Sequence record: MT764206.1
Reading direction: 5' to 3' (one strand)
From: Escherichia phage JEP6
Length of the DNA: 64,000 nucleotides
In this document: positions 18,929 through 61,253 of the stretch, one piece after another
Layout of the letters: each line of letters opens with the position of its first letter
How positions within the stretch are numbered: the first letter of the stretch is position 1
Notes under the pieces: model-generated
Told to the model about the DNA's origin: nothing
What the model saw: the letters and a program-made list of their open reading frames with translations, nothing else
Databases searched by the model: none
Translations under genes and position numbers: made by a program

Positions 18929-20205
18929 TGGTGTTTAACCCTATGCATGATTTCTTTATTTTTACCGAGATTAAATCCGCGTTCGTTCGGATTTCCCAAA
19001 TAACCACATGTTCTTCTTATTGTGTTCATCTTTTTAGGATCAGTTTCTCCACAAATAGAACAAACAAATCCGTTTTCAGTAGGAGTCATTTCATGGGTGC
19101 TTCCGCATGTAAAACATTTATCTACTGGCATATTAACACCAAAATAATCTAAATGTTGTGCAGCATAATCCCATACGGCCTCAAGACCTTTTAAGTTATT
19201 TTTCATATCAGGAAGTTCAACATAAGAAATGTGACCACCTGTCGCAATGAAATGATATGGCGCTTCACGAGAAATCTTTTCAAACGGAGTAATATTTTCT
19301 TCTACTGAAACATGGAAACTATTAGTGTACCAACCTTTATCGGTAACATCTTTTACGCTTCCATATTTTTCTGTATCAAGTTTACAGAAGCGATAACAAA
19401 GGTTTTCAGCAGGAGTCGAATATAAACTAAAAGCAAATCCGGTTCTTTCAGTCCACTGTTTAAGATGGGCATTCATTTTAGTTAAAATTTCCTGTCCAAT
19501 ATCACGACCGACAAGAATATTCAATTCATGAATACCAATGTATCCTAAAGACACTGAACTTCTACCGTTTTTAAATAACTCAATTATGTCGTCATCAGGT
19601 TTAAGACGAACCCCAAATGCACCTTCTTGGTAAAGAATAGGAGCAACAGTCGCTTTAACTCCTTTTAAGGAACTAATTCTACACATCAAAGCTTCAAAAC
19701 ACAAATCCATTCGTTCATTGAATAATTCAACAAATTTCTGTTCATTGAACTGTGTTCCAATATAAGAATCTAACGCGATGCGAGGAAGATTCAATGTTAC
19801 AACACCAAGATTATTACGTCCATCAAGAATTTCATTGCCAGTCGAATCTTTCCATACGCTCAAGAAACTACGGCAACCCATTGGAGAAACAGGAACAGAT
19901 GAACCAGTGATAGCTTTATTATTCTTAGCTGAAATAATATCAGGATACATCCTTTTGCTTGCGCACTCTAGAGCAAGCTGCTTAATATCATAGTTCGGAT
20001 CGTCTTTGTAAAGATTAACACCTTCTTCAACAAACATAACAAGCTTAGGGAAAATAGGAGTTATCCCATCACGACCAAGACCTTTAATACGATTTTTCAG
20101 AATTGCTTTCTGAATCATTCGTTCAGTCCAGTCAGTTCCCGTACCAAATGTAATTGTTACAAAAGGCGTTTGTCCGTTTGAACTAAAGAGAGTATTTACT
20201 TCATC
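18925..20205 (-). CDS. nrdD: Anaerobic ribonucleotide reductase, exon 2 (approximate 5' boundary)
   Basis: Glycyl radical motif RRTCGYLG and Zn ribbon CFTCGS...CSICG; the ORF's first ~17 codons are probably intron. Confidence 0.85.
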   Translation of the reverse strand, partial: DEVNTLFSSNGQTPFVTITFGTGTDWTERMIQKAILKNRIKGLGRDGITPIFPKLVMFVEEGVNLYKDDPNYDIKQLALECASKRMYPDIISAKNNKAITGSSVPVSPMGCRSFLSVWKDSTGNEILDGRNNLGVVTLNLPRIALDSYIGTQFNEQKFVELFNERMDLCFEALMCRISSLKGVKATVAPILYQEGAFGVRLKPDDDIIELFKNGRSSVSLGYIGIHELNILVGRDIGQEILTKMNAHLKQWTERTGFAFSLYSTPAENLCYRFCKLDTEKYGSVKDVTDKGWYTNSFHVSVEENITPFEKISREAPYHFIATGGHISYVELPDMKNNLKGLEAVWDYAAQHLDYFGVNMPVDKCFTCGSTHEMTPTENGFVCSICGETDPKKMNTIRRTCGYLGNPNERGFNLGKNKEIMHRVKHQ

Positions 20206-21249
20206 ATTATATTCAGCATGAGTCGCAAATTCATGCCCGTTTATATGAAACAACAAAATTTGGATAGTCCATAGATATGCAACGTTCTTTTATAGTGCTA
20301 GGATGAAAATTTAGCGCTTTAGCTGCTTCTATATAAGACGTATACTTAATACCGTCAACAACCACATATTCAGGAACTTTATGAATAGTAGTCTTAATAC
20401 TCAAAACAAGAGGATGAGTTTCGACTTCACTTTCAGTGCAATTTAAATATTCCGCTGCTTTTTTAAAACTTCTAAAAGTTTTATTTTTAAGCTTTATCGA
20501 TACTTGTTTTTTACTTTTTCGACTATTGATATTATTTTGCACATGTTCCTTAGATCTTCCGTTTTTAGCATAATATTCAGCTACAGAAGATTTTATATTG
20601 TTTTTATGAGATTCGGATAACACTTTACCCTTATGAGCATCTCTTAATTTTTGAATATGTTCTTCAGTATCCGGATGCTTATAAAACTTTTTACCGCCTA
20701 TGGATTTATTTAAACATTTTTTGCTATAAAAATATTTACGTATGACCTCTTCTTCATGTTTTAATGCATCTTTATAACTATCAAATGTTTTTAAAATTAT
20801 CCATTTAGTAGGTGTATCAGTTTTTAAGCGTTCATTTATATACTTAGATGACGTTGTGTAAGTTTTCCAGTTTGTGGGCTTGTTTTTAATTGTTCTAAAT
20901 TTTTTATAACCGATATAAATGTCGCCATTAGAAAACTTAACTAAGTATGTAAATGCGTCTTTATCTTTTATTTTAGTACAACGTCTTTTTATCCATTTCA
21001 TTGTTTCACCTCGTATTCATAAGATAATCTTATTTATACAAGATGACTGCTGCATGTCGCCATGCAGATTAGACTATATCTTCATCTTTCGATGCCGGCC
21101 GTTTCGAATAGCATTAGCTTCTATTCTACACCGCTACATTCATCACGGTTAGTCGTTAGGCATTTAGTTCAAAAGAACATTTAGCACGGGATTGTCTACT
21201 AGAGAGGTTCCCCGTTTAGACCGGTTTTACATGAGCCTGAATTAAATTA
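20206..21249 (-). mobile_element. Group I self-splicing intron in nrdD (boundaries approximate) carrying a homing endonuclease ORF
   Basis: nrdD reading frame interrupted; about 250-nt structured non-coding core at 21002-21249 followed by the endonuclease ORF. Confidence 0.8.
20231..21001 (-). CDS. GIY-YIG homing endonuclease (I-TevII-like) encoded within the nrdD intron
   Basis: AFTYLVKFSNGDIYIGY GIY-YIG motif; basic C-terminal DNA-binding region. Confidence 0.85.
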   Translation of the reverse strand: MKWIKRRCTKIKDKDAFTYLVKFSNGDIYIGYKKFRTIKNKPTNWKTYTTSSKYINERLKTDTPTKWIILKTFDSYKDALKHEEEVIRKYFYSKKCLNKSIGGKKFYKHPDTEEHIQKLRDAHKGKVLSESHKNNIKSSVAEYYAKNGRSKEHVQNNINSRKSKKQVSIKLKNKTFRSFKKAAEYLNCTESEVETHPLVLSIKTTIHKVPEYVVVDGIKYTSYIEAAKALNFHPSTIKERCISMDYPNFVVSYKRA

Positions 21250-21787
21250 ACTCATACGCCTGAAACGCGTCGTATACGTCTTTTTCTGTTTTAGATTGGG
21301 CATAATTCAACGCATCAGCGATTTGCCATTTTTCTGCATCCTCAATATGTTTTGCATAGGTGCGTTTAACATATGGAGAAAGTACTTTATCTACATTCGC
21401 AAAAGTCGTTCCGCCATATTGATGAGAAGCAACCTGTGCAGTAATTTGTGCCATAATTGCAGTAGCAACGCCGATTGATTTAGGAGTTTCAATCTGCGCA
21501 TTACCGAGCTTAAATCCGTTTTCAAGCATTCCTTTTAAATCTACTAAACAGCAATTAGTAAATGGAAGAGCAGGGGAATAATCAATATCATGGAAATGGA
21601 TAATTCCGCTTTCATGCGCTTTCATAATAAAAGACGGGACCATATTTTTGGCAATGTGTTTAGACACAATACCAGCCATAAGGTCCCGTTGAGTTGGAAA
21701 AACACGAGAATCTTTATTAGCATTCTCGTTTAAAAGGTCTTTATTAGTTTTATGAATCAATCCTTCAATTTCTTTTTCAATTGTCAT
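21250..21787 (-). CDS. nrdD: Anaerobic ribonucleotide reductase, exon 1 (approximate 3' boundary)
   Basis: MTIEKEIEGLIHKTNKDLL... N-terminus; ATG overlaps the gene 49 stop. Confidence 0.85.
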
Positions 21788-23045: not shown

Positions 23046-23366
23046 TTATAGCGTAATCCATTCTCGTATTGTCTGAGTTACTACACGTTCACGGGGCTCG
23101 ACCAGTTCAACAGTCGGAACTGCATAATACCAGTCAGAATGGTAAGAACCTGAACGGCATTCATTTACGGAAACATGTACATTATGTTTTGGACTAAAAT
23201 AAACACACTGACGATATTGACATTTACCGTCTTGCACCCAGTCTTCTATTTCGATAGGTTTAAGATAATCCGAAAAATCGAAATCATAATTTTCTGAAAA
23301 TGCATCATGGTCTTCGATGATTTCACTCAGAACTGCATCAACATCTAATTTATTTTCAATATTCAT
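23046..23366 (-). CDS. Hypothetical acidic protein
   Basis: 106 aa ORF. Confidence 0.5.
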   Translation of the reverse strand: MNIENKLDVDAVLSEIIEDHDAFSENYDFDFSDYLKPIEIEDWVQDGKCQYRQCVYFSPKHNVHVSVNECRSGSYHSDWYYAVPTVELVEPRERVVTQTIREWITL

Positions 23367-23376
23367 TTTTCACCAA

Positions 23377-23586
23377 TTAATTTCGCAATTTATTAAGTTC
23401 TTCATAATCAATCCAGGATTCTAGTCCTGATGGCAAATCAGATTCAATTTCCCAAAGAAGCTCTTCAATTTTCTGAAGACGTTCTAATTCTTCAGCTGGA
23501 ATAGTAACCATTGATGGAGCTCTTGATACGCTAATATCGTAAATCATATTTACCCCAGTTTGACCATACAATCGCCATATTTCCAT
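23377..23586 (-). CDS. Hypothetical protein
   Basis: 69 aa ORF. Confidence 0.45.
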   Translation of the reverse strand: MEIWRLYGQTGVNMIYDISVSRAPSMVTIPAEELERLQKIEELLWEIESDLPSGLESWIDYEELNKLRN

Positions 23587-39371: not shown

Positions 39372-39833
39372 TCATTGAGTTTTAATTACTGCTTTAGAAG
39401 CCTTTCCTGGTAAACGACGACTGTTGATAATTGCCATCCTACATTGAAGTGACGGGTCTTTGAACTTCGCGTTAGGTTTACAAACTGTAAATCCAAGCCA
39501 AAGATTTCCATCTGTGATTTCTAGACGTCCAGGACGATATTCAACCCCATCAATAAAATCCTCGTCAATGTCAGGACGCGGAGGCATACTCAGGAATTCA
39601 TTAACTTCTAAAACATGGTCTTTTATTTTATGGAATAATTCAAAAACATATGTCTCATCAATCTCCCGTTGAATTGCGCGATCAAGAAGATGTTGAGAAT
39701 ATTTTAGATGAAACGATGAGACCCCTGCTGCTTTTGATGCCTCACGAATCTCATTGTTAATTTGACGAAACTCCGACTCAAAGTGACGACGAAGCTTATT
39801 TCGACGGATAAAAACTTCTGTGTTGATAGTCAT
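39372..39833 (-). CDS. regB: Endoribonuclease RegB
   Basis: 153 aa at the expected position; recognised N-terminus MTINTEVFIRRNKLRRHFESEF. Confidence 0.8.
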   Translation of the reverse strand: MTINTEVFIRRNKLRRHFESEFRQINNEIREASKAAGVSSFHLKYSQHLLDRAIQREIDETYVFELFHKIKDHVLEVNEFLSMPPRPDIDEDFIDGVEYRPGRLEITDGNLWLGFTVCKPNAKFKDPSLQCRMAIINSRRLPGKASKAVIKTQ

Positions 39834-39857
39834 GTTATTCTCCTCTTAACTGATAGA

Positions 39858-39890
39858 AAAATTATACCACAGTCAAGAGGAAAAGTAAAC
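39858..39890 (-). promoter_or_regulatory. Early promoter upstream of regB
   Basis: aaattatacca ... gtaaac. Confidence 0.5.
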
Positions 39891-39892
39891 AA

Positions 39893-40171
39893 TTATTCTT
39901 TAAATCTAATCAATTTATTCATAGACTTTGAAACTTCTGCACGAACCTCATGTAGATTTTTGAGCTGTTCAAGACGCTGCTCATAGTAAGCAATTTCATC
40001 TTCTTCGAGACAGTCCTGTGAATCTTCTTTAAGATAACGTGCATAGTCCTGGAAAGCGTTACGAACTACTTCCTGGAAGTCATCAAGACTTTGAATTTTC
40101 TTAGGAGCAACAGATACACGACGAGGGGCAGTATAATACTCATAACCAAACCCTGCGCTTAATTGAGCCAT
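39893..40171 (-). CDS. Hypothetical protein (vs.3 position)
   Basis: ATG at 40171 overlapping the upstream stop; the track start at 40213 is less likely. Confidence 0.45.
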
Positions 40172-40473
40172 TAGTATTTTTCCTCTGGTTGGAACACAGC
40201 ACGGCAAGCCCACATACTGGCTTCTTTGAGTTTCGTTTTAGCAATAGTTAACTGATCGAGGCTTTCGGCGTAATTCTTCGCGAGTTCACAGTCTTCACAA
40301 TTATCTAGTGCTTCCCAGAATTCATCGTATAAAGCATCAAAGATAAGTCCTAAACGAACTTCAGCGTCTTTGATAGCATTCACTTTACCGATTTTCTTTT
40401 CAGTATGCGGCTTATAACCCTTAATATCTTCAATCATATTTGACTTCCTCACCAGTACATAAATCATATTCAA
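40171..40473 (-). CDS. Hypothetical protein at the vs.4 position; candidate anti-CBASS Acb2 by synteny
   Basis: About 90-100 aa, third ORF upstream of regB; identity by map position only. Confidence 0.4.
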
Positions 40474-40651: not shown

Positions 40652-41013
40652 TACAAACTCTCGGTAAAGGTACGAGCGATAACGTCGCGCTGCTGTTCCG
40701 GAGTCAGAGAGTTAAAGCGAACTGCATAACCGGATACACGGATGGTCAGCTGCGGATATTTTTCCGGATGCTTAACTGCATCTTCCAGAGTTTCACGACG
40801 CAGAACGTTAACGTTCAGGTGTTGACCACCTTCAATTTTAACTGTAGGCTGTTGCTCAATTTCAATTTCACGGGCATGCAAACCGTAGAAAATTTCTGGG
40901 TCTACAAAAGAGTCCTCTTTAAAGGTTTTAGAAACGATAATTCGTGCTTGAATACCATCTTCAAAATAAATAGTACCTTTATGTGTGCCTTCAAGAATTT
41001 GATATGCTTTCAT
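40651..41013 (-). CDS. Autonomous glycyl-radical cofactor (GrcA/YfiD-like)
   Basis: C-terminal [25 protein letters not shown] glycyl-radical motif; 120 aa. Confidence 0.75.
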
Positions 41014-41020
41014 ATAAACC

Positions 41021-41350
41021 TCAATTAGAAAATAAATTTATCCAAGATTGTTCTTTAATTAAAAATGGCTCAGAATCATATGCCATTAAACTCTGTGTGA
41101 TTAGTCCTTTAAAAGGCCCATCAATAAATTCCATGGTAAAATATGGAATTTTATTCATTAGCCGTGCATTAGGAGCAGTACACAAAACTCTGCATCCTTT
41201 GAATACACCTTTTTGTAATTTGTATTGCTTAGGATAAAATTCACTTAAAATGTTATTTTTTGCCAAAATTTCAAAATGATTCACCAATTTATTTTTAATA
41301 GTTTTTGGCGAAAAATAAAGATATTCGAAAAGCTGAGTGTCTGTCATCAT
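41021..41350 (-). CDS. Hypothetical protein
   Basis: ATG at 41350 overlaps the upstream stop (ATGATGA). Confidence 0.45.
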
Positions 41351-41886
41351 TGCATTCCGATTACGAAAAACTGCGGACGAGTAATACCACCAATACAACA
41401 TTTAATATTACAGCAGCAGTGTACAGTGTCAATGTGGACACTATAAATCTTATCCATATCAGGAGATTTGACAGGCTCATCAATTATATATAAAATTCGC
41501 GAAAGCGATAAACCTCTGAACTTGCTTCCTTTATTACCAATAAAACTGCGCACAGAATCAGTAAATAAACGAAAACGTATATCATCATTAGAATAACGCG
41601 AAAATTCCTTTTTAATGTTATTTGCAGAAATTTTAGCGTAAGCTGAAGTATTAGAAAGAACAATAACCGTTCCGCCATCATATAACCAATTAGCAGCAAA
41701 GTTAGTCACAGCAATTGATTTACCTGATTGACGTCCACCATCTAGTCGAAGTGTGCAATACTGTTTAAGTAAGTCTTCAAATGGTGGGACATAACCGTTC
41801 TTACAAATTTCTTCTACTCTAGCATCAGAATGGTGTGTAAAAGCATTCATCAGGGATAGATAAGGTCCAGTTAAAAATGTTCTCAT
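41347..41886 (-). CDS. Hypothetical protein occupying the denV-side position
   Basis: 179 aa; DGGRQSGKS P-loop-like segment; Cys-rich tail; no similarity to endonuclease V. Confidence 0.45.
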   Translation of the reverse strand: MRTFLTGPYLSLMNAFTHHSDARVEEICKNGYVPPFEDLLKQYCTLRLDGGRQSGKSIAVTNFAANWLYDGGTVIVLSNTSAYAKISANNIKKEFSRYSNDDIRFRLFTDSVRSFIGNKGSKFRGLSLSRILYIIDEPVKSPDMDKIYSVHIDTVHCCCNIKCCIGGITRPQFFVIGMQ

Positions 41887-41966
41887 TTAGTTTCTCTTTT
41901 AGGTTGGGCCATTCCGTGGCGCATGAATTGTCCATTTCTGTATTTACCCCTCCAAGTAATTATGAA

Positions 41967-41997
41967 TATACTATCACAATTCTAGGAGAAAGTAAAC
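41967..41997 (-). promoter_or_regulatory. Early promoter cassette copy
   Basis: tatactatca ... gtaaac. Confidence 0.5.
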
Positions 41998-41999
41998 TG

Positions 42000-42302
42000 T
42001 TATTTACCTTTAATTACTTTAGCTGCTTCGATAGCCGCTTGCTGAAGGTCATCCATAGACATACCGAATTTAGAAGCAAAGTTATCAATTTTCTTTTCGA
42101 CAGCATTCAAAGGCTTGGCCTGTTTACCTTCATTAGCGCCAGGAAGAGCGAGAATACGCTCTTTGTCAATATAAAGGCTTACAAGTTTCTTACGGTCTTT
42201 ATCGGACAAATCATGAAATGAATGGGCCTTTTTATTTATAGCGGCTTCTAATTTACCTGCACTCACTCGCGCTTCAGTAATAAATTCTTGATATGTTTTC
42301 AT
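42000..42302 (-). CDS. Internal head protein (IPII/IPIII-like) with capsid targeting sequence
   Basis: MKTYQEFITEARVSAGKLEA... CTS with L-x-E cleavage context; 100 aa. Confidence 0.7.
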   Translation of the reverse strand: MKTYQEFITEARVSAGKLEAAINKKAHSFHDLSDKDRKKLVSLYIDKERILALPGANEGKQAKPLNAVEKKIDNFASKFGMSMDDLQQAAIEAAKVIKGK

Positions 42303-42357
42303 ATGTTTCCTTTAAATGTAAATATTTTAATTGGTAATTGACTGTTTAAGTAACTGT

Positions 42358-42391
42358 GAATATATTATCACAATTCTAAGAGAAAGTAAAC
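42358..42391 (-). promoter_or_regulatory. Early promoter cassette copy
   Basis: tatattatca ... gtaaac. Confidence 0.5.
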
Positions 42392-42396
42392 TGCTT

Positions 42397-49447: not shown

Positions 49448-49453
49448 GTTATA

Positions 49454-50062
49454 TTATTTATTACGTGAAAAAGACTGTTCTATCAATTCTGGACACTTTC
49501 GTTCTATCCATTTTCTAGCTTTTTGTGGGCTTATACCTATTATTTTAGCAGCTTTACTAACCCATCCAAATTTAGAATAATCGATTTTAACTAATTCTTC
49601 GTAAATTTCATCAGTTAAAATCTTTTCATTAATATTTACCAGTAAATGATATAATTTGTTATCATTAGCAATTTTAATGAATCTTTTATAGTTTCCGCCT
49701 TTACTTAAACCTAATGAAGTAATTGCAGATGATATAGTAGCCGAATTTAATAATGCGTTTAAAATTTCTTCATCACTAACATTATAACGCTTTTTATTAT
49801 TTTTAATATTTTTACCAGCAAAAGTATCAGTTTGCGAGTGACAGTTTGGACATAATAATCTTAAATTTGATTTAAGATGATTTTTGTTATTTCCATCAAT
49901 ATGGTCTAATTGCAGAACAATATGCTTATTTTGCCATTTTGAAATTTTACAAATTGCACACTCATATGGAAAAATATTTTCTTTTATTATTTTGTCTTTC
50001 AGCTTTCCTGTGCTAAAATTTGGGTGTTTTCCTTCAAAAATTTCAGCTAATTTAGTATCCAT
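49454..50062 (-). CDS. HNH homing endonuclease
   Basis: LQLDHIDGNNKNHLKSNLRLLCPNCH HNH motif; ATG at 50062. Confidence 0.75.
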   Translation of the reverse strand: MDTKLAEIFEGKHPNFSTGKLKDKIIKENIFPYECAICKISKWQNKHIVLQLDHIDGNNKNHLKSNLRLLCPNCHSQTDTFAGKNIKNNKKRYNVSDEEILNALLNSATISSAITSLGLSKGGNYKRFIKIANDNKLYHLLVNINEKILTDEIYEELVKIDYSKFGWVSKAAKIIGISPQKARKWIERKCPELIEQSFSRNK

Positions 50063-50172
50063 AATATGATTCCCAATTATTAACAAAGGCTCTCAAACAA
50101 GAACCCTTGATGATAGAGGGTATTAATCAGTGCGGTACGAGTTAATAATAACAAATAATTCTTAAAGCATAT

Positions 50173-50466: not shown

Positions 50467-50843
50467 CCTTCATCAACAATAGTATGCGTATTGGCATTTA
50501 CAATTTGCCACCAATCAAATCGATTAGAACCATACATCGGTTTGTTTTCATTTTCTTTAATAATGTCACGGAGTTCATCTTCAGTGGCGGCTTTCGCGAT
50601 TAAATCAGCATATCCACCACGAGGATAATAATTATCACCTGCAAAAAGTAAAAAGTTTGGTTTAATGTTATTGAACTCTTCAAGAGTAATAACTTTTCCT
50701 GTTGGTTGAACAATCTCTACATATTTATATCCCAATTTTTGAGCAGCATCTACTGCTTCAAGCAAAGTATCATGAGCCCATCCTATTTGACAATTCGGCT
50801 TTTTAGATGGATTAGCCTGATAATCCGCGTACACTTTATACAT
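50463..50843 (-). CDS. Hypothetical protein
   Basis: ATG at 50843 (MYKVYADYQ...); about 126 aa. Confidence 0.5.
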   Translation of the reverse strand: MYKVYADYQANPSKKPNCQIGWAHDTLLEAVDAAQKLGYKYVEIVQPTGKVITLEEFNNIKPNFLLFAGDNYYPRGGYADLIAKAATEDELRDIIKENENKPMYGSNRFDWWQIVNANTHTIVDEG

Positions 50844-54388: not shown

Positions 54389-54840
54389 TATGCCCCCTTA
54401 AAGCCAAGAGCTCGTAATCCATCTTCTGTTAGAATTCTAAATTTTATTCCACGCTTTTCAGCTAAAGATTGTGCTGCTTTCCATTTGTCAGTATTAACGG
54501 AATATGTATAAATTTCATTCATAAATCTTTTCTTCGCTGCGGTTGTTAGATGTGCTGGTTTAATTGGTGGTTGTGTTTCTTTTTTAGGCTTTATTTCAAT
54601 AAAAAATTCTTGTCCAGAAGAATCTTTCATCCAAATATCCATGAAGTATCTACGTTTTTTCCCTTCTGCATTACAAAAATAAGGAATTACTGCTGTTTCA
54701 CTACCCCATGCAATAATTTCTGGATTTTTATCTAACCATTCAAAAAAGAATTTTTCCCAATTTGATCTATACGTAATTTTTTTAGGGTCACCTCTATATT
54801 TTGATATATTTTTAGGAACCCATTTTCCAGAATATGCCAT
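54388..54840 (-). CDS. 4: Head completion protein
   Basis: 150 aa [21 protein letters not shown]... Confidence 0.8.
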
Positions 54841-54851
54841 TGGATTCTCCT

Positions 54852-54874
54852 TATAAATAGATAATATATTTATA
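54852..54874. promoter_or_regulatory. Divergent late promoters (TATAAATA on plus for gene 53; TATAAATA on minus for gene 4)
   Basis: tataaata at 54852-54859 (plus) and tatttata at 54867-54874 (reverse complement TATAAATA). Confidence 0.6.
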
Positions 54875-54887
54875 AACAGGAGGGCCC

Positions 54888-55478
54888 ATGCTCTTTACAT
54901 TTTTTGATCCGATTGAATATGCGGCCAAAACGGTGAATAAAAACGCGCCGACTATTCCTATGACAGATATTTTTAGAAACTATAAAGACTATTTCAAACG
55001 CGCTCTTGCGGGATACCGCTTACGTACTTATTATATCAAAGGTTCACCACGCCCGGAAGAATTAGCAAATGCTATATATGGAAATCCACAGTTGTATTGG
55101 GTTTTATTGATGTGTAATGATAATTATGATCCATATTATGGATGGATTACTTCGCAGGAAGCTGCTTATCAAGCATCTATACAAAAATACAAAAATGTAG
55201 GTGGAGACCAAATAGTATATCATGTGAATGAGAATGGTGAAAAATTTTATAATTTAATATCATACGATGATAATCCATATGTTTGGTATGACAAAGGCGA
55301 TAAAGCTAGAAAATATCCTCAATATGAAGGAGCACTTGCTGCGGTAGATACGTATGAAGCTGCTGTTCTTGAAAATGAAAAACTTCGTCAAATAAAAATA
55401 ATAGCAAAATCAGACATCAATTCATTTATGAACGACCTTATACGTATAATGGAGAAATCTTATGGAAATGATAAGTAA
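54888..55478 (+). CDS. 53: Baseplate wedge protein
   Basis: 196 aa; first rightward late gene. Confidence 0.85.
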   Translation: MLFTFFDPIEYAAKTVNKNAPTIPMTDIFRNYKDYFKRALAGYRLRTYYIKGSPRPEELANAIYGNPQLYWVLLMCNDNYDPYYGWITSQEAAYQASIQKYKNVGGDQIVYHVNENGEKFYNLISYDDNPYVWYDKGDKARKYPQYEGALAAVDTYEAAVLENEKLRQIKIIAKSDINSFMNDLIRIMEKSYGNDK

Positions 55479-57234
55479 TAACCTTAATTGGTTTGTTGGT
55501 GTTGTTGAAGATAGAATGGACCCATTAAAATTAGGTCGTGTTCGTGTTCGTGTGGTTGGTCTGCATCCACCTCAAAGAGCACAAGGCGACGTAATGGGTA
55601 TTCCAACTGATAAATTACCATGGATGTCAGTTATTCAACCTATAACTTCTGCAGCAATGTCTGGAATTGGAGGCTCCGTTACTGGTCCGGTAGAAGGAAC
55701 TAGAGTTTATGGTCATTTTTTAGACAAATGGAAAACTAACGGAATTGTCCTTGGCACATATGGTGGAATAGTTCGCGAAAAACCTAATAGACTTGAAGGA
55801 TTTTCTGACCCAACTGGGCAGTATCCTAGACGTCTAGGAAATGATACTAACGTATTAAACCAAGGCGGAGAAGTAGGATATGATTCGTCTTCTAACGTTA
55901 TCCAAGACAGTAATTTAGATACTGCAATAAATCCCGATGATAGACCGCTATCAGAGATTCCAACTGATGATAATCCAAATATGTCAATGGCTGAAATGCT
56001 TCGCCGTGATGAAGGATTAAGACTAAAAGTTTATTGGGATACAGAAGGATATCCGACAATTGGTATTGGTCATCTTATCATGAAGCAGCCAGTTCGTGAT
56101 ATGGCCCAAATTAATAAAGTTTTATCAAAACAAGTTGGTCGTGAAATTACTGGAAATCCAGGTTCTATTACAATGGAAGAAGCGGTAACTTTATTTGAGC
56201 GTGATTTGGCTGATATGCAACGTGACATTAAATCACATTCTAAAGTAGGACCAGTCTGGCAAGCTGTCAACCGTTCTCGTCAAATGGCGTTAGAAAATAT
56301 GGCATTTCAGATGGGTGTTGGTGGTGTAGCTAAATTTAACACAATGTTAACTGCTATGTTAGCCGGAGATTGGGAAAAAGCATATAAAGCCGGACGTGAT
56401 TCATTGTGGTATCAACAAACAAAAGGCCGTGCATCCCGTGTTACCATGATTATTCTTACAGGGAATTTGGAATCATACGGTATTGAAGTGAAAACCCCAG
56501 CTAGGTCTCTATCAGCAATGGCTGCTACTGCAGCTAAATCTTCTGACCCTGCTGACCCTCCTATTCCAAATGACTCGAGAATTTTATTCAAAGAACCAGT
56601 TTCTTCATATAAAGGTGAATATCCTTATGTGCATACAATGGAAACTGAAAGCGGACATATTCAGGAATTTGATGATACCCCTGGGCAAGAACGATATAGA
56701 TTAGTTCATCCAACTGGAACTTATGAAGAAGTATCACCGTCAGGAAGAAGAACAAGAAAAACTGTTGATAATTTGTATGATATAACAAATGCTGATGGTA
56801 ATTTTTTGGTAGCCGGTGATAAAAAGACTAACGTCGGTGGATCAGAAATTTATTACAACATGGATAATCGTTTACATCAAATCGATGGAAGCAATACGAT
56901 ATTTGTTCGAGGAGATGAAACGAAAACTGTTGAAGGTAATGGAACTATCCTAGTTAAAGGTAATGTTAAAGTAGTTATTCAAGGAACAGCAGATATAACC
57001 GTTGAACAGGAAGCATACATAACTGTTGAAAAAGACACGACTGTTAATGTTAACCAAAACGCAGACATAAGTGTTAAAAATAAAGCAACTGTTAATGCTG
57101 AAAATATGGATGTCAACGTTGAGCAAGATTTAAATTTTTCAGCGACAAATATTAATTTAAGTGCATCTAATACTGTTCATATGGATGGCGGGGTTCTTTC
57201 TAAAGTATCAGGTGGAAACGTACAGGTTGGTTAA
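55462..57234 (+). CDS. 5: Baseplate hub / tail-associated lysozyme (cell-puncturing spike)
   Basis: MEMISNNLNWFVGVVED...; lysozyme domain MAEMLRRDEGLRLKVYWDTEGYPTIGIGH; C-terminal beta-helix shorter and divergent from recalled T4. Confidence 0.9.
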   Translation: MEMISNNLNWFVGVVEDRMDPLKLGRVRVRVVGLHPPQRAQGDVMGIPTDKLPWMSVIQPITSAAMSGIGGSVTGPVEGTRVYGHFLDKWKTNGIVLGTYGGIVREKPNRLEGFSDPTGQYPRRLGNDTNVLNQGGEVGYDSSSNVIQDSNLDTAINPDDRPLSEIPTDDNPNMSMAEMLRRDEGLRLKVYWDTEGYPTIGIGHLIMKQPVRDMAQINKVLSKQVGREITGNPGSITMEEAVTLFERDLADMQRDIKSHSKVGPVWQAVNRSRQMALENMAFQMGVGGVAKFNTMLTAMLAGDWEKAYKAGRDSLWYQQTKGRASRVTMIILTGNLESYGIEVKTPARSLSAMAATAAKSSDPADPPIPNDSRILFKEPVSSYKGEYPYVHTMETESGHIQEFDDTPGQERYRLVHPTGTYEEVSPSGRRTRKTVDNLYDITNADGNFLVAGDKKTNVGGSEIYYNMDNRLHQIDGSNTIFVRGDETKTVEGNGTILVKGNVKVVIQGTADITVEQEAYITVEKDTTVNVNQNADISVKNKATVNAENMDVNVEQDLNFSATNINLSASNTVHMDGGVLSKVSGGNVQVG

Positions 57235-57235
57235 T

Positions 57236-59272
57236 ATGAATTATAACGAAATTGTTGATGAATTAGTTGATACCATACAATCAGCTTGTTCAATTATTCC
57301 CGAAGGTTATTATAGACGAGTTAAATGGGAATTATACAATCCCAATAAAGAAATGATTCAACCCGATAATGGGGTTGAATGGGACACTGAAATTATTAAA
57401 TTAGATACCCATCTTTACACCGAAAATCCATTTGGTCATTCTTCTGATACATTTACTGAATCATCTAATGGAGAAACCCAAACTGGTGTTTTTTGTCATA
57501 AAATCGGCGTGTATTTTCCAACTCAAACTGCGTTAGAAGATTACGTTGAACAAATTGGTGCAACTTTACTTCCAGGTAATACTTGGTATGGTGCTGATTT
57601 ATCGAAACGTGAATTTTTTAAAACTGAAATTGAATATGATATGTATCGCATTGAAAATCGCGGAGGTACATGGCATCATACGGGTCCTAGAATAGATGCT
57701 AGGACAATGATCGGTGTTAACAATGACTATACAATGTATGTTAACTTTAACGGTTTAGGAGATTATCGAAGAGCATATTTAAAATATTATGAAGATAAAC
57801 CATGCACATATGTCGGTTTAACACTAAATTTAAATATAGATACATCAATTCCCGGTATTCCTTATTCACCTCCATCAATTATTGGAGAGCTTCCACTTAA
57901 TGCAATTTCATGCGTTAATTTTACTGCCCAATTTCCATACAATGGCTTAACATCTGCAATTATTGAGGCTTGGAACACCTCAAGAGATTCATTTAAACTA
58001 TATTGGGATATGTTGCCTGGTATGCCGGCAATTAGCGGAAGTGATTTTGAAAAATATTTTAATTCGGCATATACACATTTATCTGTAGCAATGGAAGAGC
58101 TTGGAAATTCGGCAATTGCCATGTGTCAATATGTTCAGCAACAAGCCTTTATGGTTTTTAAAAATTCTGTTTCACAAGTTCTAAATATTGTCGGTGGCGG
58201 ATGGGATTTATTAAAAAGTTTTTTACCTAAAATAACAATAATGGGCATATCTATTGATATTGAAGATTTATGTACATCAACAGATGGTGTTCAAAAATTG
58301 AAGGAAACCTTTGAAAATTTTAATCTGGAAGATACTATTAGTTCAATTTATTCTGCAATGGGTTCTGCATATGACTATTCTATAGAACGCGTTAAAATGT
58401 ATTCGCGGGATTTAGTTGATGCAATAACAGATTTATATGATTGGGCCTGGTCAAAATTAATGATGGCCGGTGTCGCTTTATCAAAATTATGTGTTGATTT
58501 AGCACAAATCTGGAGCATGCCGCCAATTATTCCAAATCCAGTGTGGTCTGTTATCACTTTAGTGAAGGAAATGATGAAACAAATTCCTCCATTAGATATG
58601 ATTATGTCAGGTAATTTTCCTGGATTTACTGCTTCTGATGTATATCAGATGGTTATGTCTATCGTATCTGAAAAAATTAAACAAGTTTATACTGAAATAG
58701 AATCATTAAAAACCCAAGCATTGGATGTATGGAATGAAATTAAACTAAAAACACAGGAATATAAAAAGCAAACGATTGAATTTAAACAATATTTATCAGG
58801 AATGGCTGAAAAGGTTGAAGATGAAATAACTATAGCAAAAAAGAAAGCGTTACAAGAAGCTGAATCCGCTTTAAATGTTTTAAAGGATAAATATAACAGT
58901 ATTAAAGACTTAATAAAAAATAAACAGATTTCTGTGTCTGATGTATTAGATTTAGCTTTGACTGAATTTCGAAAAATTCCATTAATTTCACAAATGGAAT
59001 CATTATTATCTTTAGCTGGAGCATCTATCGATGATATAATGAAAGTATATGAAAATAGCGTTACTAAAGCAAAATCATTATATCACGAATTCACCGATGG
59101 CGCTCGGTCAATGAAAGATCTATGCAAATCATTATACAATCAAATTTCGACTTTATGTTTGAGTAAGGTTGTGCAATGGATTAATAAAATGCTTGGAATA
59201 TTTGGATTAAGTATTACATTTCCAACAGTATCAATATGCATTCCATGCTTAAAAACTCCTATGAGGAATTAA
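57236..59272 (+). CDS. Large hypothetical protein between genes 5 and 6 (possible baseplate/spike-associated protein)
   Basis: 678 codons from the ATG 1 nt after the gene 5 stop; central hydrophobic Pro-rich segment; K/E-rich coiled-coil C-terminus. Confidence 0.6.
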   Translation: MNYNEIVDELVDTIQSACSIIPEGYYRRVKWELYNPNKEMIQPDNGVEWDTEIIKLDTHLYTENPFGHSSDTFTESSNGETQTGVFCHKIGVYFPTQTALEDYVEQIGATLLPGNTWYGADLSKREFFKTEIEYDMYRIENRGGTWHHTGPRIDARTMIGVNNDYTMYVNFNGLGDYRRAYLKYYEDKPCTYVGLTLNLNIDTSIPGIPYSPPSIIGELPLNAISCVNFTAQFPYNGLTSAIIEAWNTSRDSFKLYWDMLPGMPAISGSDFEKYFNSAYTHLSVAMEELGNSAIAMCQYVQQQAFMVFKNSVSQVLNIVGGGWDLLKSFLPKITIMGISIDIEDLCTSTDGVQKLKETFENFNLEDTISSIYSAMGSAYDYSIERVKMYSRDLVDAITDLYDWAWSKLMMAGVALSKLCVDLAQIWSMPPIIPNPVWSVITLVKEMMKQIPPLDMIMSGNFPGFTASDVYQMVMSIVSEKIKQVYTEIESLKTQALDVWNEIKLKTQEYKKQTIEFKQYLSGMAEKVEDEITIAKKKALQEAESALNVLKDKYNSIKDLIKNKQISVSDVLDLALTEFRKIPLISQMESLLSLAGASIDDIMKVYENSVTKAKSLYHEFTDGARSMKDLCKSLYNQISTLCLSKVVQWINKMLGIFGLSITFPTVSICIPCLKTPMRN

Positions 59273-59273
59273 A

Positions 59274-61253
59274 ATGACAACTCCTGTAAATTATCAATTA
59301 ACAAGAACAGCAAATGCTATTCCCGAGATATTCGTCGGGGGTACGTTTGCTGAAATAAAACAAAACCTCATTGAATGGCTTAATGGCCAAAATGAATTTT
59401 TGGATTATGATTTTGAAGGCTCAAGATTAAACGTTCTGTGCGACCTTTTGGCTTATAATACATTGTACATTCAGCAGTTTGGTAATGCTGCTGTGTATGA
59501 AAGCTTTATGCGTACTGCTAACTTACGAAGTTCAGTTGTTCAAGCTGCACAAGATAACGGATATTTACCTACTTCAAAATCCGCTGCGCAGACCGAAATT
59601 ATGTTAACATGCACCGACGCATTGAATAGGAATTACATTACTATTCCTCGTGGTACTCGCTTTTTAGCATATGCAAAAGATACTTCTGTTAATCCATATA
59701 ACTTCGTTTCTACCGAAGACGTTATTGCTATTCGTGATAAAAATAACCAATATTTTCCGCGTTTAAAATTGGCCCAGGGACGTATAGTAAGAACTGAAAT
59801 CATTTATGATAAATTAACACCTATTATCATTTATGATAAAAATATTGATAGAAACCAGGTTAAATTATATGTTGATGGAGCGGAATGGATTAACTGGACG
59901 AGAAAGTCAATGGTTCATGCTGGTTCTACATCAACAATTTACTACATGCGTGAAACTATTGATGGAAATACTGAATTTTATTTTGGTGAAGGTGAGATTT
60001 CCGTTAATGCGGCAGAAGGAGCATTGACTGCTAATTATATTGGAGGTCTTAAACCTACTCAGAACTCTACGATTGTTATTGAGTATATCAGTACTAACGG
60101 TGCAGATGCGAATGGTGCAGTCGGATTTTCATACGCAGATACATTAACAAATATAACTGTCATCAATATTAATGAAAACCCAAACGATGACCCAGATTTT
60201 GTTGGGGCAGATGGCGGCGGTGACCCAGAAGATATTGAACGTATTCGCGAATTGGGTACTATTAAACGTGAAACCCAACAACGCTGCGTAACTGCAACCG
60301 ACTATGATACATTCGTTTCAGAAAGATTCGGTTCTATTATTCAAGCGGTTCAGACTTTCACTGATTCTACTAAACCTGGTTATGCATTTATTGCTGCTAA
60401 ACCTAAATCAGGACTATATTTAACTACTGTACAACGTGAAGATATTAAAAATTATCTAAAAGATTATAATTTAGCTCCTATTACACCATCAATTATTTCT
60501 CCTAATTATCTTTTTGTTAAGACTAATTTAAAAGTCACATATGCTTTAAATAAACTACAAGAATCCGAGCAGTGGCTTGAAGGTCAAATAATTGATAAAA
60601 TTGATCGCTATTATACCGAAGATGTAGAAATTTTTAACTCATCTTTCGCTAAATCTAAGATGTTGACATATGTAGATGATGCAGATCATTCTATCATTGG
60701 CTCATCCGCGACAATTCAAATGGTACGTGAAGTACAAAACTTCTATAAAACGCCTGAAGCGGGTATTAAATACAATAATCAAATAAAAGATCGTTCTATG
60801 GAATCTAATACGTTTTCATTTAATTCTGGACGAAAAGATGTAAATCCTGATACTGGTTTAGAAGAAGATGTATTATATGACGTTCATATAGTATCAACAG
60901 ACCGAGATTCTAAAGGAATTGGCAAAGTTATTATTGGTCCATTTGCTTCTGGCGATGTTACAGAAAATGAAAACATTCAGCCATATACAGGCAATGATTT
61001 TAATAAATTAGCAAGTTCCAATGGACGTGACAAATACTATGTTATCGGTGAAATAAATTATCCAGCTGACATGATTTATTGGAATATCGCTAAAATTAAT
61101 TTAACATCCGATAAATTTGAGGTTCAGACTATTGAGCTATATTCTGATCCAATAGACGATGTTATTTTCACACGCGATGGTTCACTGATCGTATTTGAAA
61201 ATGATTTACGTCCACAATACTTAACTATCGATTTGGAGCCTATATCACAATGA
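59274..61253 (+). CDS. 6: Baseplate wedge protein
   Basis: 659 aa MTTPVNYQLTRTANAIPEIFVGG... Confidence 0.88.
   Translation: MTTPVNYQLTRTANAIPEIFVGGTFAEIKQNLIEWLNGQNEFLDYDFEGSRLNVLCDLLAYNTLYIQQFGNAAVYESFMRTANLRSSVVQAAQDNGYLPTSKSAAQTEIMLTCTDALNRNYITIPRGTRFLAYAKDTSVNPYNFVSTEDVIAIRDKNNQYFPRLKLAQGRIVRTEIIYDKLTPIIIYDKNIDRNQVKLYVDGAEWINWTRKSMVHAGSTSTIYYMRETIDGNTEFYFGEGEISVNAAEGALTANYIGGLKPTQNSTIVIEYISTNGADANGAVGFSYADTLTNITVININENPNDDPDFVGADGGGDPEDIERIRELGTIKRETQQRCVTATDYDTFVSERFGSIIQAVQTFTDSTKPGYAFIAAKPKSGLYLTTVQREDIKNYLKDYNLAPITPSIISPNYLFVKTNLKVTYALNKLQESEQWLEGQIIDKIDRYYTEDVEIFNSSFAKSKMLTYVDDADHSIIGSSATIQMVREVQNFYKTPEAGIKYNNQIKDRSMESNTFSFNSGRKDVNPDTGLEEDVLYDVHIVSTDRDSKGIGKVIIGPFASGDVTENENIQPYTGNDFNKLASSNGRDKYYVIGEINYPADMIYWNIAKINLTSDKFEVQTIELYSDPIDDVIFTRDGSLIVFENDLRPQYLTIDLEPISQ

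Follow-up and report, generated by a model that had tools for sequence, protein, structure and literature searches.

Between the baseplate genes 5 and 6 of Escherichia phage JEP6, the 64,000-nucleotide (nt) stretch of DNA analysed here (sequence record MT764206.1; hereafter the window) carries a single open reading frame (ORF) on the plus strand, at 57236-59272, which encodes a protein of 678 amino acids (aa) beginning MNYNEIVDEL. We find that this ORF is a homologue of RB43 orf205w, that it has been exchanged together with the end of gene 5 as one cassette, and that its product is probably a spike-tip protein in the virion's cell-puncturing apparatus. The ORF abuts both of its neighbours: gene 5 ends with a TAA at 57234 and a single T separates it from the ORF ATG at 57236, and the ORF ends with a TAA at 59272, followed after one A by the ATG of gene 6 at 59274. 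An earlier reading made from the letters of the window (the sequence-only reading) had described a 2-kb ORF lying 1 nt from the gene 5 stop and 1 nt from gene 6, and had read this as pointing to translational coupling with late structural genes; the coordinates confirm the spacing, and the ORF does sit inside the late baseplate operon. Upstream of the ORF ATG are an in-frame GTG at 57161 and an in-frame ATG at 57185, the frame being open for 75 nt (57161-57235) across the end of gene 5; homologues all begin directly after the gene 5 stop and leave both codons unused, so we take 57236 as the true start. A weak Shine-Dalgarno sequence, AGGT, lies 8 nt 5' of the ATG, within the codons for the conserved gp5 C-terminal QVG.

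The chance of 678 stop-free codons at the local base composition is ~2e-21, and full-length homologues (40-72% identity) with a steady length of ~680-700 aa are found in ~215 phage records and 65 protein clusters; the ORF is therefore a real gene. The constant length across the 65 clusters also rules out an artefactual or frameshifted fusion of two smaller genes, a possibility that the sequence-only reading had raised. The lowest G+C content of the region, 0.29-0.30, lies in the 3' third of the ORF (58500-59250); gene 5 ranges over 0.33-0.41 and gene 6 over 0.33-0.37. This low-G+C stretch coincides with the part that encodes the K/E-rich helical portion of the protein.

Judged by homology, the protein is a member of the already described RB43 orf205w family. 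It matches RB43 orf205w with 41.9% identity over 99% of its length by tblastn (44% as aligned identity), and residues 1-673 give a full-length match (E=0) to phrog_5296, a PHROGs family of unknown function. Other tblastn identities are 72% for SP18 and WG01, 60% for KM16, 55% for Proteus phages, 46% for Cronobacter and Citrobacter phages, and ~41% for RB43, Lw1, KP15, Matisse, Miller, and Enterobacter phages. The ORF was present in each phage that we examined from the RB43, KP15, Proteus, and Cronobacter types. RB43ORF205w lies between genes 5 and 6 without 5.1 or 5.4, SP18 is arranged likewise, and the position directly after gene 5 is seen in RB43, SP18, KM16, Ci1, and 12 further loci. All the sequence features of the family are present in JEP6—full-length homology, a place in lieu of 5.1-5.4, an RB43-type gp5 tip, and no 5.4 in the window or in the near-identical SG1 genome. 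The sequence-only reading, which did not recognise the family and offered the ORF as new, is overturned on this point by homologues of the same size in RB43, SP18, KP15, and Lw1 and by the full-length phrog_5296 match; RB43ORF205w has been listed, as a novel ORF, since 2006 (PMC1524935).

Sequence profiles show a narrow family: when 1.84 billion representative proteins were searched exhaustively, 8 full-length clusters and a few fragments were recovered, the remainder being weak coiled-coil matches, and no distant relative was detected. One short homologue was considered as a natural truncation and rejected; the protein of Escherichia phage phT4A (NC_055712.1, 4351-5973), annotated at 485 aa and found at that length in a predicted-structure database too, has a run of N from the assembly in its N-terminal domain. 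Automatic annotations of family members conflict with one another ('tail length tape measure protein', 'baseplate hub structural protein', 'SbcC-like subunit of palindrome specific endonuclease'; for example PP889464.1, PQ657805.1, PP889466.1, and MT341500.1). These names are unsupported by our searches and appear to derive from weak coiled-coil matches.

In the T4-type phage RB32, the order of genes is gene 5, 5.1 (172 aa), 5.4 (97 aa), and gene 6, and the RB32-type 5.4 protein matches the Pfam PAAR motif (9e-10); the sequence-only reading was right that only small ORFs, among them a PAAR-type 5.4, occupy this interval in T4-type phages. Some 518 phage records, mostly Tequatrovirus, match the gene 5 region of the window, and 9 of them match across the ORF; these 9 represent six distinct phages (SG1, BYEP01, PD112, sutha, F26, and G8). 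In the remaining records the alignment covers only the initial ~1.5 kb of gene 5 and is regained where gene 6 begins; the interval holds 5.1 and 5.4 and in some cases a homing endonuclease gene as well. The closest record, that of Salmonella phage SG1 (Tequatrovirus, MF001354.1), is 97-99% identical to the window over most of its length and 100% identical over the ORF. A tblastn search (E<=10) of the window's 64 kb and of the complete SG1 genome, on which the absence of PAAR beyond the window rests, found no homologue of gp5.4 or gp5.1 and did detect the RB32 control; we therefore regard the ORF as a replacement of 5.1 and 5.4, not an addition to them. Two side observations concern SG1. Window positions 20204-21250, 23046-23390, 41949-42271, 49448-50069, and 50642-50841 have no high-identity SG1 counterpart and are small indel or replacement islands in early-gene and tRNA regions. 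Outside the window, the SG1 annotation splits the terminase large subunit (MF001354.1, 39544-42396) into parts at 39544-40437 and 41011-42396, separated by a 200-aa ORF, which points to the insertion of a mobile element or an intron-like sequence into gene 17.

The replacement extends into gene 5. The gp5 protein encoded upstream of the ORF has Gp5_OB, lysozyme, and Gp5_C domains (Pfam: Gp5_OB 1e-65, Phage_lysozyme 3e-12) and is 590 aa long, compared with 575 aa in RB32. Residues 1-502 are 98% identical to RB32 gp5 (93-100% at the DNA level in 90-nt bins); the tip that follows, from residue 503, is 30% identical to the RB32 tip and 91% identical to that of SP18. With 88 aa against 73 aa in RB32, the tip is 15 residues longer—the sequence-only reading had called the C-terminal beta-helix both divergent and shorter, of which the first holds from residue 503 onward and the second does not. 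By blastn against RB32, T4-type DNA identity stops at nt 56968, the codon of K503, and returns at 59264, 10 nt before the gene 6 ATG. A cassette of ~2.3 kb thus substitutes for ~1.04 kb (gp5 tip, 5.1, and 5.4) of T4-type genomes. Its left junction (VEGNGTILVKGNV) is preceded by a stretch encoding VEGNGT[IL]LVKGNV, nearly identical in all lineages, which is a plausible homology patch for recombination.

The same exchange is seen in a second lineage. In the SP18 lineage, 12 records have the ORF, and dozens of SP18 relatives that share 85-96% DNA identity in common parts (P896, PSD2001, VR25, VR26, JS98, JS10, IME08, and QL01 among those compared) carry 5.1 and 5.4 instead. The gp5 body and tip of SP18 are 97% and 30% identical to those of P896, as the window is 98% and 30% identical to RB32; between the window and SP18 the relation is turned around, at 67% for the body and 91% for the tip. 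In both lineages the breakpoint falls right after VEGNGT[IL]LVKGNV. The tips of P896 and RB32 share 73% identity, more than the two bodies do (65%). Two alternative cassettes thus circulate independently of the rest of the spike: one with a T4-type gp5 tip ending IDGSRIDIG, accompanied by 5.1 and 5.4, and one with an orf205w-type gp5 tip ending GGNVQVG, accompanied by the ~680-aa protein. SP18 itself was considered as donor of the JEP6 cassette and ruled out, its DNA being only ~82% identical over the gp5 tip and 60-80% over the ORF. Among 5.8 billion proteins, the nearest one from beyond the SG1 group is only ~72% identical, and the donor is therefore absent from the databases. As far as the searched literature shows, neither the swap into a phage of the T4 genus nor its recurrence at one breakpoint has been described.

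Linkage between the gp5 tip and the ORF is close in all the loci examined. Relative to the stop of gene 5, the ORF begins at -1 to +4 nt in 17/17 loci, and the partner gp5 ends G[GA][NT]VQVG in all 17 of these; the C-terminal motif GG.L.K.SGG.VQVG is common to gp5 of the window, SP18, and RB43. In Citrobacter phage Ci1 the adjacency of gene 5 and the ORF is kept though gene 6 does not follow and an additional gene stands between 53 and 5. The Ci1 locus (OR515478.1, 1-6800) departs from the order of other T4-like phages and reads gp48, gp53, an extra hypothetical gene of ~400 aa, gp5, the orf205w homologue, and, in place of gene 6, a run of small genes on the opposite strand. Since the gp5 tip and the ORF are exchanged together at the same breakpoint in two lineages, the terminal ~88 gp5 residues and the ORF product behave as one co-adapted module, as expected of direct binding partners. 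We consider this linkage the strongest evidence assembled here that the two proteins may interact directly. The coordinates of the locus are collected in Table 1.

Table 1. Features of the gene 53 to gene 6 region of the window and segments of the 678-aa protein.
Feature	Position	Strand	Basis or remark
Late promoter, T4-type consensus TATAAATA	54852..54859	+	36 nt 5' of gene 53; sole plus-strand copy near the operon
Gene 53 (baseplate wedge), first in late unit	54888..55478	+	ORF call and SG1 annotation
Gene 5, T4-type part (gp5 residues 1-502): OB fold, lysozyme, most of beta-helix	55462..56967	+	
Gene 5, exchanged tip (gp5 residues 503-590, 88 aa), ending ...GGVLSKVSGGNVQVG	56968..57234	+	orf205w-type platform
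Replaced cassette, ~2.3 kb	56968..59263	+	blastn against RB32, sliding identity, junction alignments
678-aa ORF, RB43 orf205w homologue, putative non-PAAR spike-tip protein	57236..59272	+	
N-terminal alpha/beta domain, aa 1-280	57236..58075	+	invariant C18, R27, W49, W117-G-A-D121, E133, E140-N141, C190
Most variable segment, aa 481-570, both arms of the longest hairpin (466-520, 529-566)	58676..58945	+	column entropy, SP18 comparison
C-terminal hydrophobic segment, aa 651-673	59186..59254	+	mean Kyte-Doolittle 1.6-1.8
Gene 6 (baseplate wedge)	59274..61253	+	five gp6 Pfam domains

The only plus-strand late-promoter consensus of the region lies 5' of gene 53, with no further plus-strand copy of TATAAATA between 54852 and the ORF and no plus-strand terminator-like site between gene 53 and gene 6; co-transcription of the ORF with 53, 5, and 6 is therefore most likely. 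A second TATAAATA on the minus strand at 54867 faces away from the plus-strand copy at 54852, the two being 8 nt apart (54852-54874). This pair sits in the 47-nt gap between gene 4 (minus strand, ending at 54840) and gene 53 (plus strand, starting at 54888), and looks like a compact divergent pair of late promoters.

We predicted the structure of the protein with AlphaFold2 from a 60-sequence alignment. The monomer model is confident (mean predicted local distance difference test score, pLDDT, 87.2; predicted template modelling score, pTM, 0.80) and shows an elongated helical bundle; it has an alpha/beta region at residues 1-275, long helices over 285-655, and a C-terminal strand at 664-673; the modelled helices span 285-319, 389-426, 466-520 (55 residues, ~82 Å), 529-566, and 622-655, with the hairpin at 466-566. 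The domain layout proposed by the sequence-only reading, a globular N-terminal part, a hydrophobic Pro-rich middle, and a K/E-rich coiled-coil tail of roughly 200 aa, was broadly correct. Conservation peaks at residues 391-480 (W426-S-M-P-P..P-N-P.W and F-P-G-F-T) and 631-660, and cysteines are conserved at positions 18, 190, 226, 630, and 668; the family alignment contains no conserved histidine. Column entropy reaches 2.4-2.5 bits in aa 481-570, compared with ~1.2 elsewhere, and identity to SP18 falls to 62% over residues 481-600, with 84-85% in the flanking parts. The segment at aa 651-673 is the sole stretch of transmembrane-like hydrophobicity and is preceded by a highly conserved LSKV.QW.NK motif.

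Searches by sequence and by fold found little beyond the family. Nothing was found at E<=1 in a sequence search against all PDB chains, the N-terminal domain has no PDB neighbour, and Foldseek against viral predicted structures returned the family's own members only. Pfam, NCBIfam, and PHROG gave, besides phrog_5296, chance-level coiled-coil matches only (the PADLOC defence library was not searched). Because the fold searches returned no informative match, the modelled fold is not PAAR-like, lectin-like, or enzyme-like.

Published work on the family proposes a place for the protein in the virion. A 2025 preprint from the Leiman and Belin groups notes that RB43, RB16, and Lw1 are without gene 5.4 and that orf205w (~690 aa) fills the locus; it describes the N-terminal ~220 residues as mixed alpha/beta and the remainder as helical, in line with our model (PMC12407873). 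In a cryo-electron microscopy map of the RB43 baseplate at 17.7 Å, the gp5-like spike ends in a larger tip density, which orf205w is proposed to fill, and a low-confidence AlphaFold model of orf205w is said to fit this tip density (PMC12407873). In the Klebsiella grimontii phage Helios, the homologue gp203 is placed by AlphaFold3 as one copy on the platform of the gp5 (gp202) trimer, as a triple coiled coil with a terminal loop; its function is not experimentally established according to the authors, who speculate that it is an analogue of gp5.1 and gp5.4 together (PMC13611949, 2026). Compared with RB43 orf205w, Helios gp203, and phrog_5296, the JEP6 protein is alike over its full length (42-44% identity for the RB43 and KP15 types, 72-73% for SP18), has the same length, and shares with them the position directly after gene 5, the gp5 tip GG.VQVG, and the lack of 5.1 and 5.4. 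The difference from them lies in the host genome: JEP6 is of the Tequatrovirus type with a gp5 body 98% T4-type, so that the protein would sit on a chimeric spike.

Taken together, we think it likely that the ORF encodes a spike-tip protein of the virion cell-puncturing device, a non-PAAR alternative to gp5.4 and possibly to gp5.1 too. The spike-tip guess of the sequence-only reading agrees both with the proposals for RB43 orf205w (PMC12407873) and Helios gp203 (PMC13611949) and with the exchange of the gp5 tip and the ORF as one cassette. The homology, the linkage of gene 5 and ORF, their co-exchange, the loss of 5.1 and 5.4, the late-operon position, and the predicted architecture come from the present analysis; the enlarged RB43 tip density and the AlphaFold models of the complex come from the literature. 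On this reading the protein would be made late, from a 53-5-ORF-6 transcript, and probably a single copy would dock on the flat platform formed by three gp5 beta-helix C-termini of the matching type (GGNVQVG); cassette co-inheritance and the literature both point to such binding to the gp5 beta-helix. The helical bundle, with a longest helix of ~80 Å, would lengthen the needle, and on sheath contraction the tip would be the first virion part to reach the outer membrane, entering the periplasm with gp5. The hypervariable hairpin of aa 481-570 would likely form the distal, envelope-contacting end, judging from the published Helios model, whose terminal loop it fits (PMC13611949). We infer stoichiometry, orientation, first membrane contact, and periplasm entry, and the tip location rests on the RB43 map and the AlphaFold models of the literature.

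Several points weigh against a spike tip. The RB43 map is C6-averaged as well as limited to 17.7 Å, and its tip is said to be only 'possibly' encoded by orf205w; the confidence of the authors' AlphaFold models was low, and co-expression with a gp5 beta-helix fragment failed (PMC12407873). Virion proteomics for any family member was not found in the literature, which was searched for KP15/KP27 and Slopekvirus mass spectrometry; one virion mass-spectrometry paper was set aside as evidence because it concerns Jiaodaviruses, which have gp5.4. To bind a three-fold platform as a monomer, the protein would require an interface that is pseudo-threefold or asymmetric, and it shares nothing with PAAR proteins, having neither a Pfam match nor a conserved histidine.

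Comparison with known tips shows how far the proposed replacement departs from them. T4 gp5.4, the PAAR tip (crystal structure 4KU0 as cited in PMC12407873), occupies the same slot between genes 5 and 6, is likewise expressed late, and has the proposed job in common—capping the gp5 beta-helix platform; its absence from the RB43-type and SG1 genomes checked is consistent with functional replacement by the ORF. In contrast, gp5.4 has 97 aa to the 678 aa of the ORF product and matches PAAR_motif at 9e-10, whereas the ORF product has no PF05488 match at E<=1 and is without the small conical beta-structure and His/Cys apex metal site of PAAR proteins. The gp5 tips required also differ, IDGSRIDIG for gp5.4 and GGNVQVG for the ORF product. 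T4 gp5.1, which has been modelled beside gp5.4 (PMC13611949), is displaced by the same cassette; homology of the ORF product to gp5.1 was tried and rejected (BLASTP E > 3). The helical tripod of phage P1, formed by UpfB on the PAAR protein UpfC (PMC13611949, PDB 9VZK), is comparable in that alpha-helices with a distal loop prolong a myovirus puncturing device at its very end; however, three UpfB copies stand on a PAAR protein there, and here there is no PAAR protein and one polypeptide would provide both base and helical bundle. No homology between the ORF product and P1 UpfB was detected.

The alternative that survives best, though we hold it unlikely, is a virion-borne, membrane-active protein that rides on the spike and is ejected, as the sequence-only reading had thought possible; once the spike has penetrated, its hairpins and C-terminal hydrophobic segment would insert in the outer or inner membrane and help to build or seed a DNA conduit. 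This overlaps in part with a spike tip and differs in making membrane remodelling the main role. It could account for the conserved C-terminal hydrophobic segment, for the conserved Pro/Trp-rich motif W-S-M-P-P-x-x-P-N-P-x-W, and for a length of 678 aa that far exceeds the need for capping a beta-helix, and weak PHROG matches to tape-measure proteins (E ~1e-5) lean the same way. Yet a single 19-mer has transmembrane-like hydrophobicity, phages of this kind retain the usual baseplate-hub genes elsewhere (the SG1 hub-gene block, which we take from T4 to include the tape measure gp29), and the evidence comes down to a generic helical resemblance. Tape-measure proteins themselves (PHROGs 167, 8927, 1272, and 4070) are long, helical, and partly hydrophobic, as is the ORF product; identity with them was rejected, the matches being partial, composition-driven, and confined to low-complexity helical sequence, and the gene standing between 5 and 6, which is not the tape-measure position. 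We regard the 'tape measure' annotation of some homologues as wrong; T4-type phages measure the tail with gp29.

An extension that joins the two ideas is, in our estimate, equally doubtful. It would have a spike-borne, membrane-active, translocon-like device of an unseen fold, in which the hypervariable hairpin sets the breachable envelopes (lipopolysaccharide, LPS, or outer-membrane types), and the interchangeable cassette, passed on by recombination at the conserved gene 5 patch, would give T4-like phages a second determinant of host range that does not depend on the tail fibres.

Less probable again is a late, non-virion protein that would help to assemble or chaperone the hub or the variant gp5 tip and would not remain in the completed particle. 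A place in a late morphogenesis operon suits such a factor, co-inheritance with the gp5 tip suits a dedicated chaperone equally, and no proteomic proof of virion presence was found in the literature; nevertheless, nothing else in the locus explains the extra RB43 tip density, no PAAR protein would be left to cap the exposed hydrophobic gp5 platform (PMC12407873), and it would be unusual for a segment of 88 residues to have a chaperone as large as 678 aa. Selfish or accessory cargo unrelated to the spike (superinfection exclusion, defence, or counter-defence) is highly improbable: the 5-6 interval is recombination-prone and a known insertion site, where the annotations of several T4-type phages place segC and further homing endonuclease genes, and the ORF is patchy within genera, as its presence in so few of the matching records illustrates, but the exchange always takes the gp5 tip and always removes 5.1 and 5.4, every examined phage of several whole types carries the ORF, no endonuclease gene is attached, and the sole defence-type match is a chance-level ZorA coiled-coil (E 0.02, 13.8 bits against a cut-off of 500).

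As a spike tip, the protein would belong to the only described family of non-PAAR tips on a T4-type spike, the family function being a proposed one. The SG1, PD112, and G8 group carries this putative tip on a spike and baseplate otherwise near-identical to T4, and so provides the most tractable setting for a test, with near-isogenic comparison to T4-type phages, T4 genetics, and existing T4 baseplate structures at hand. Natural swaps that recur at a single breakpoint in two lineages provide genetic evidence for a required match between the tip protein and the terminal ~88 residues of gp5, and the breakpoint marks the place to cut when engineering chimeric spikes. T4 gp5.4 is required for infecting deep-rough LPS mutants (PMC12407873), and tip swaps could therefore alter which envelopes are penetrable; if true, a change of envelope range by tip swap would matter for the host range of phages used in therapy.

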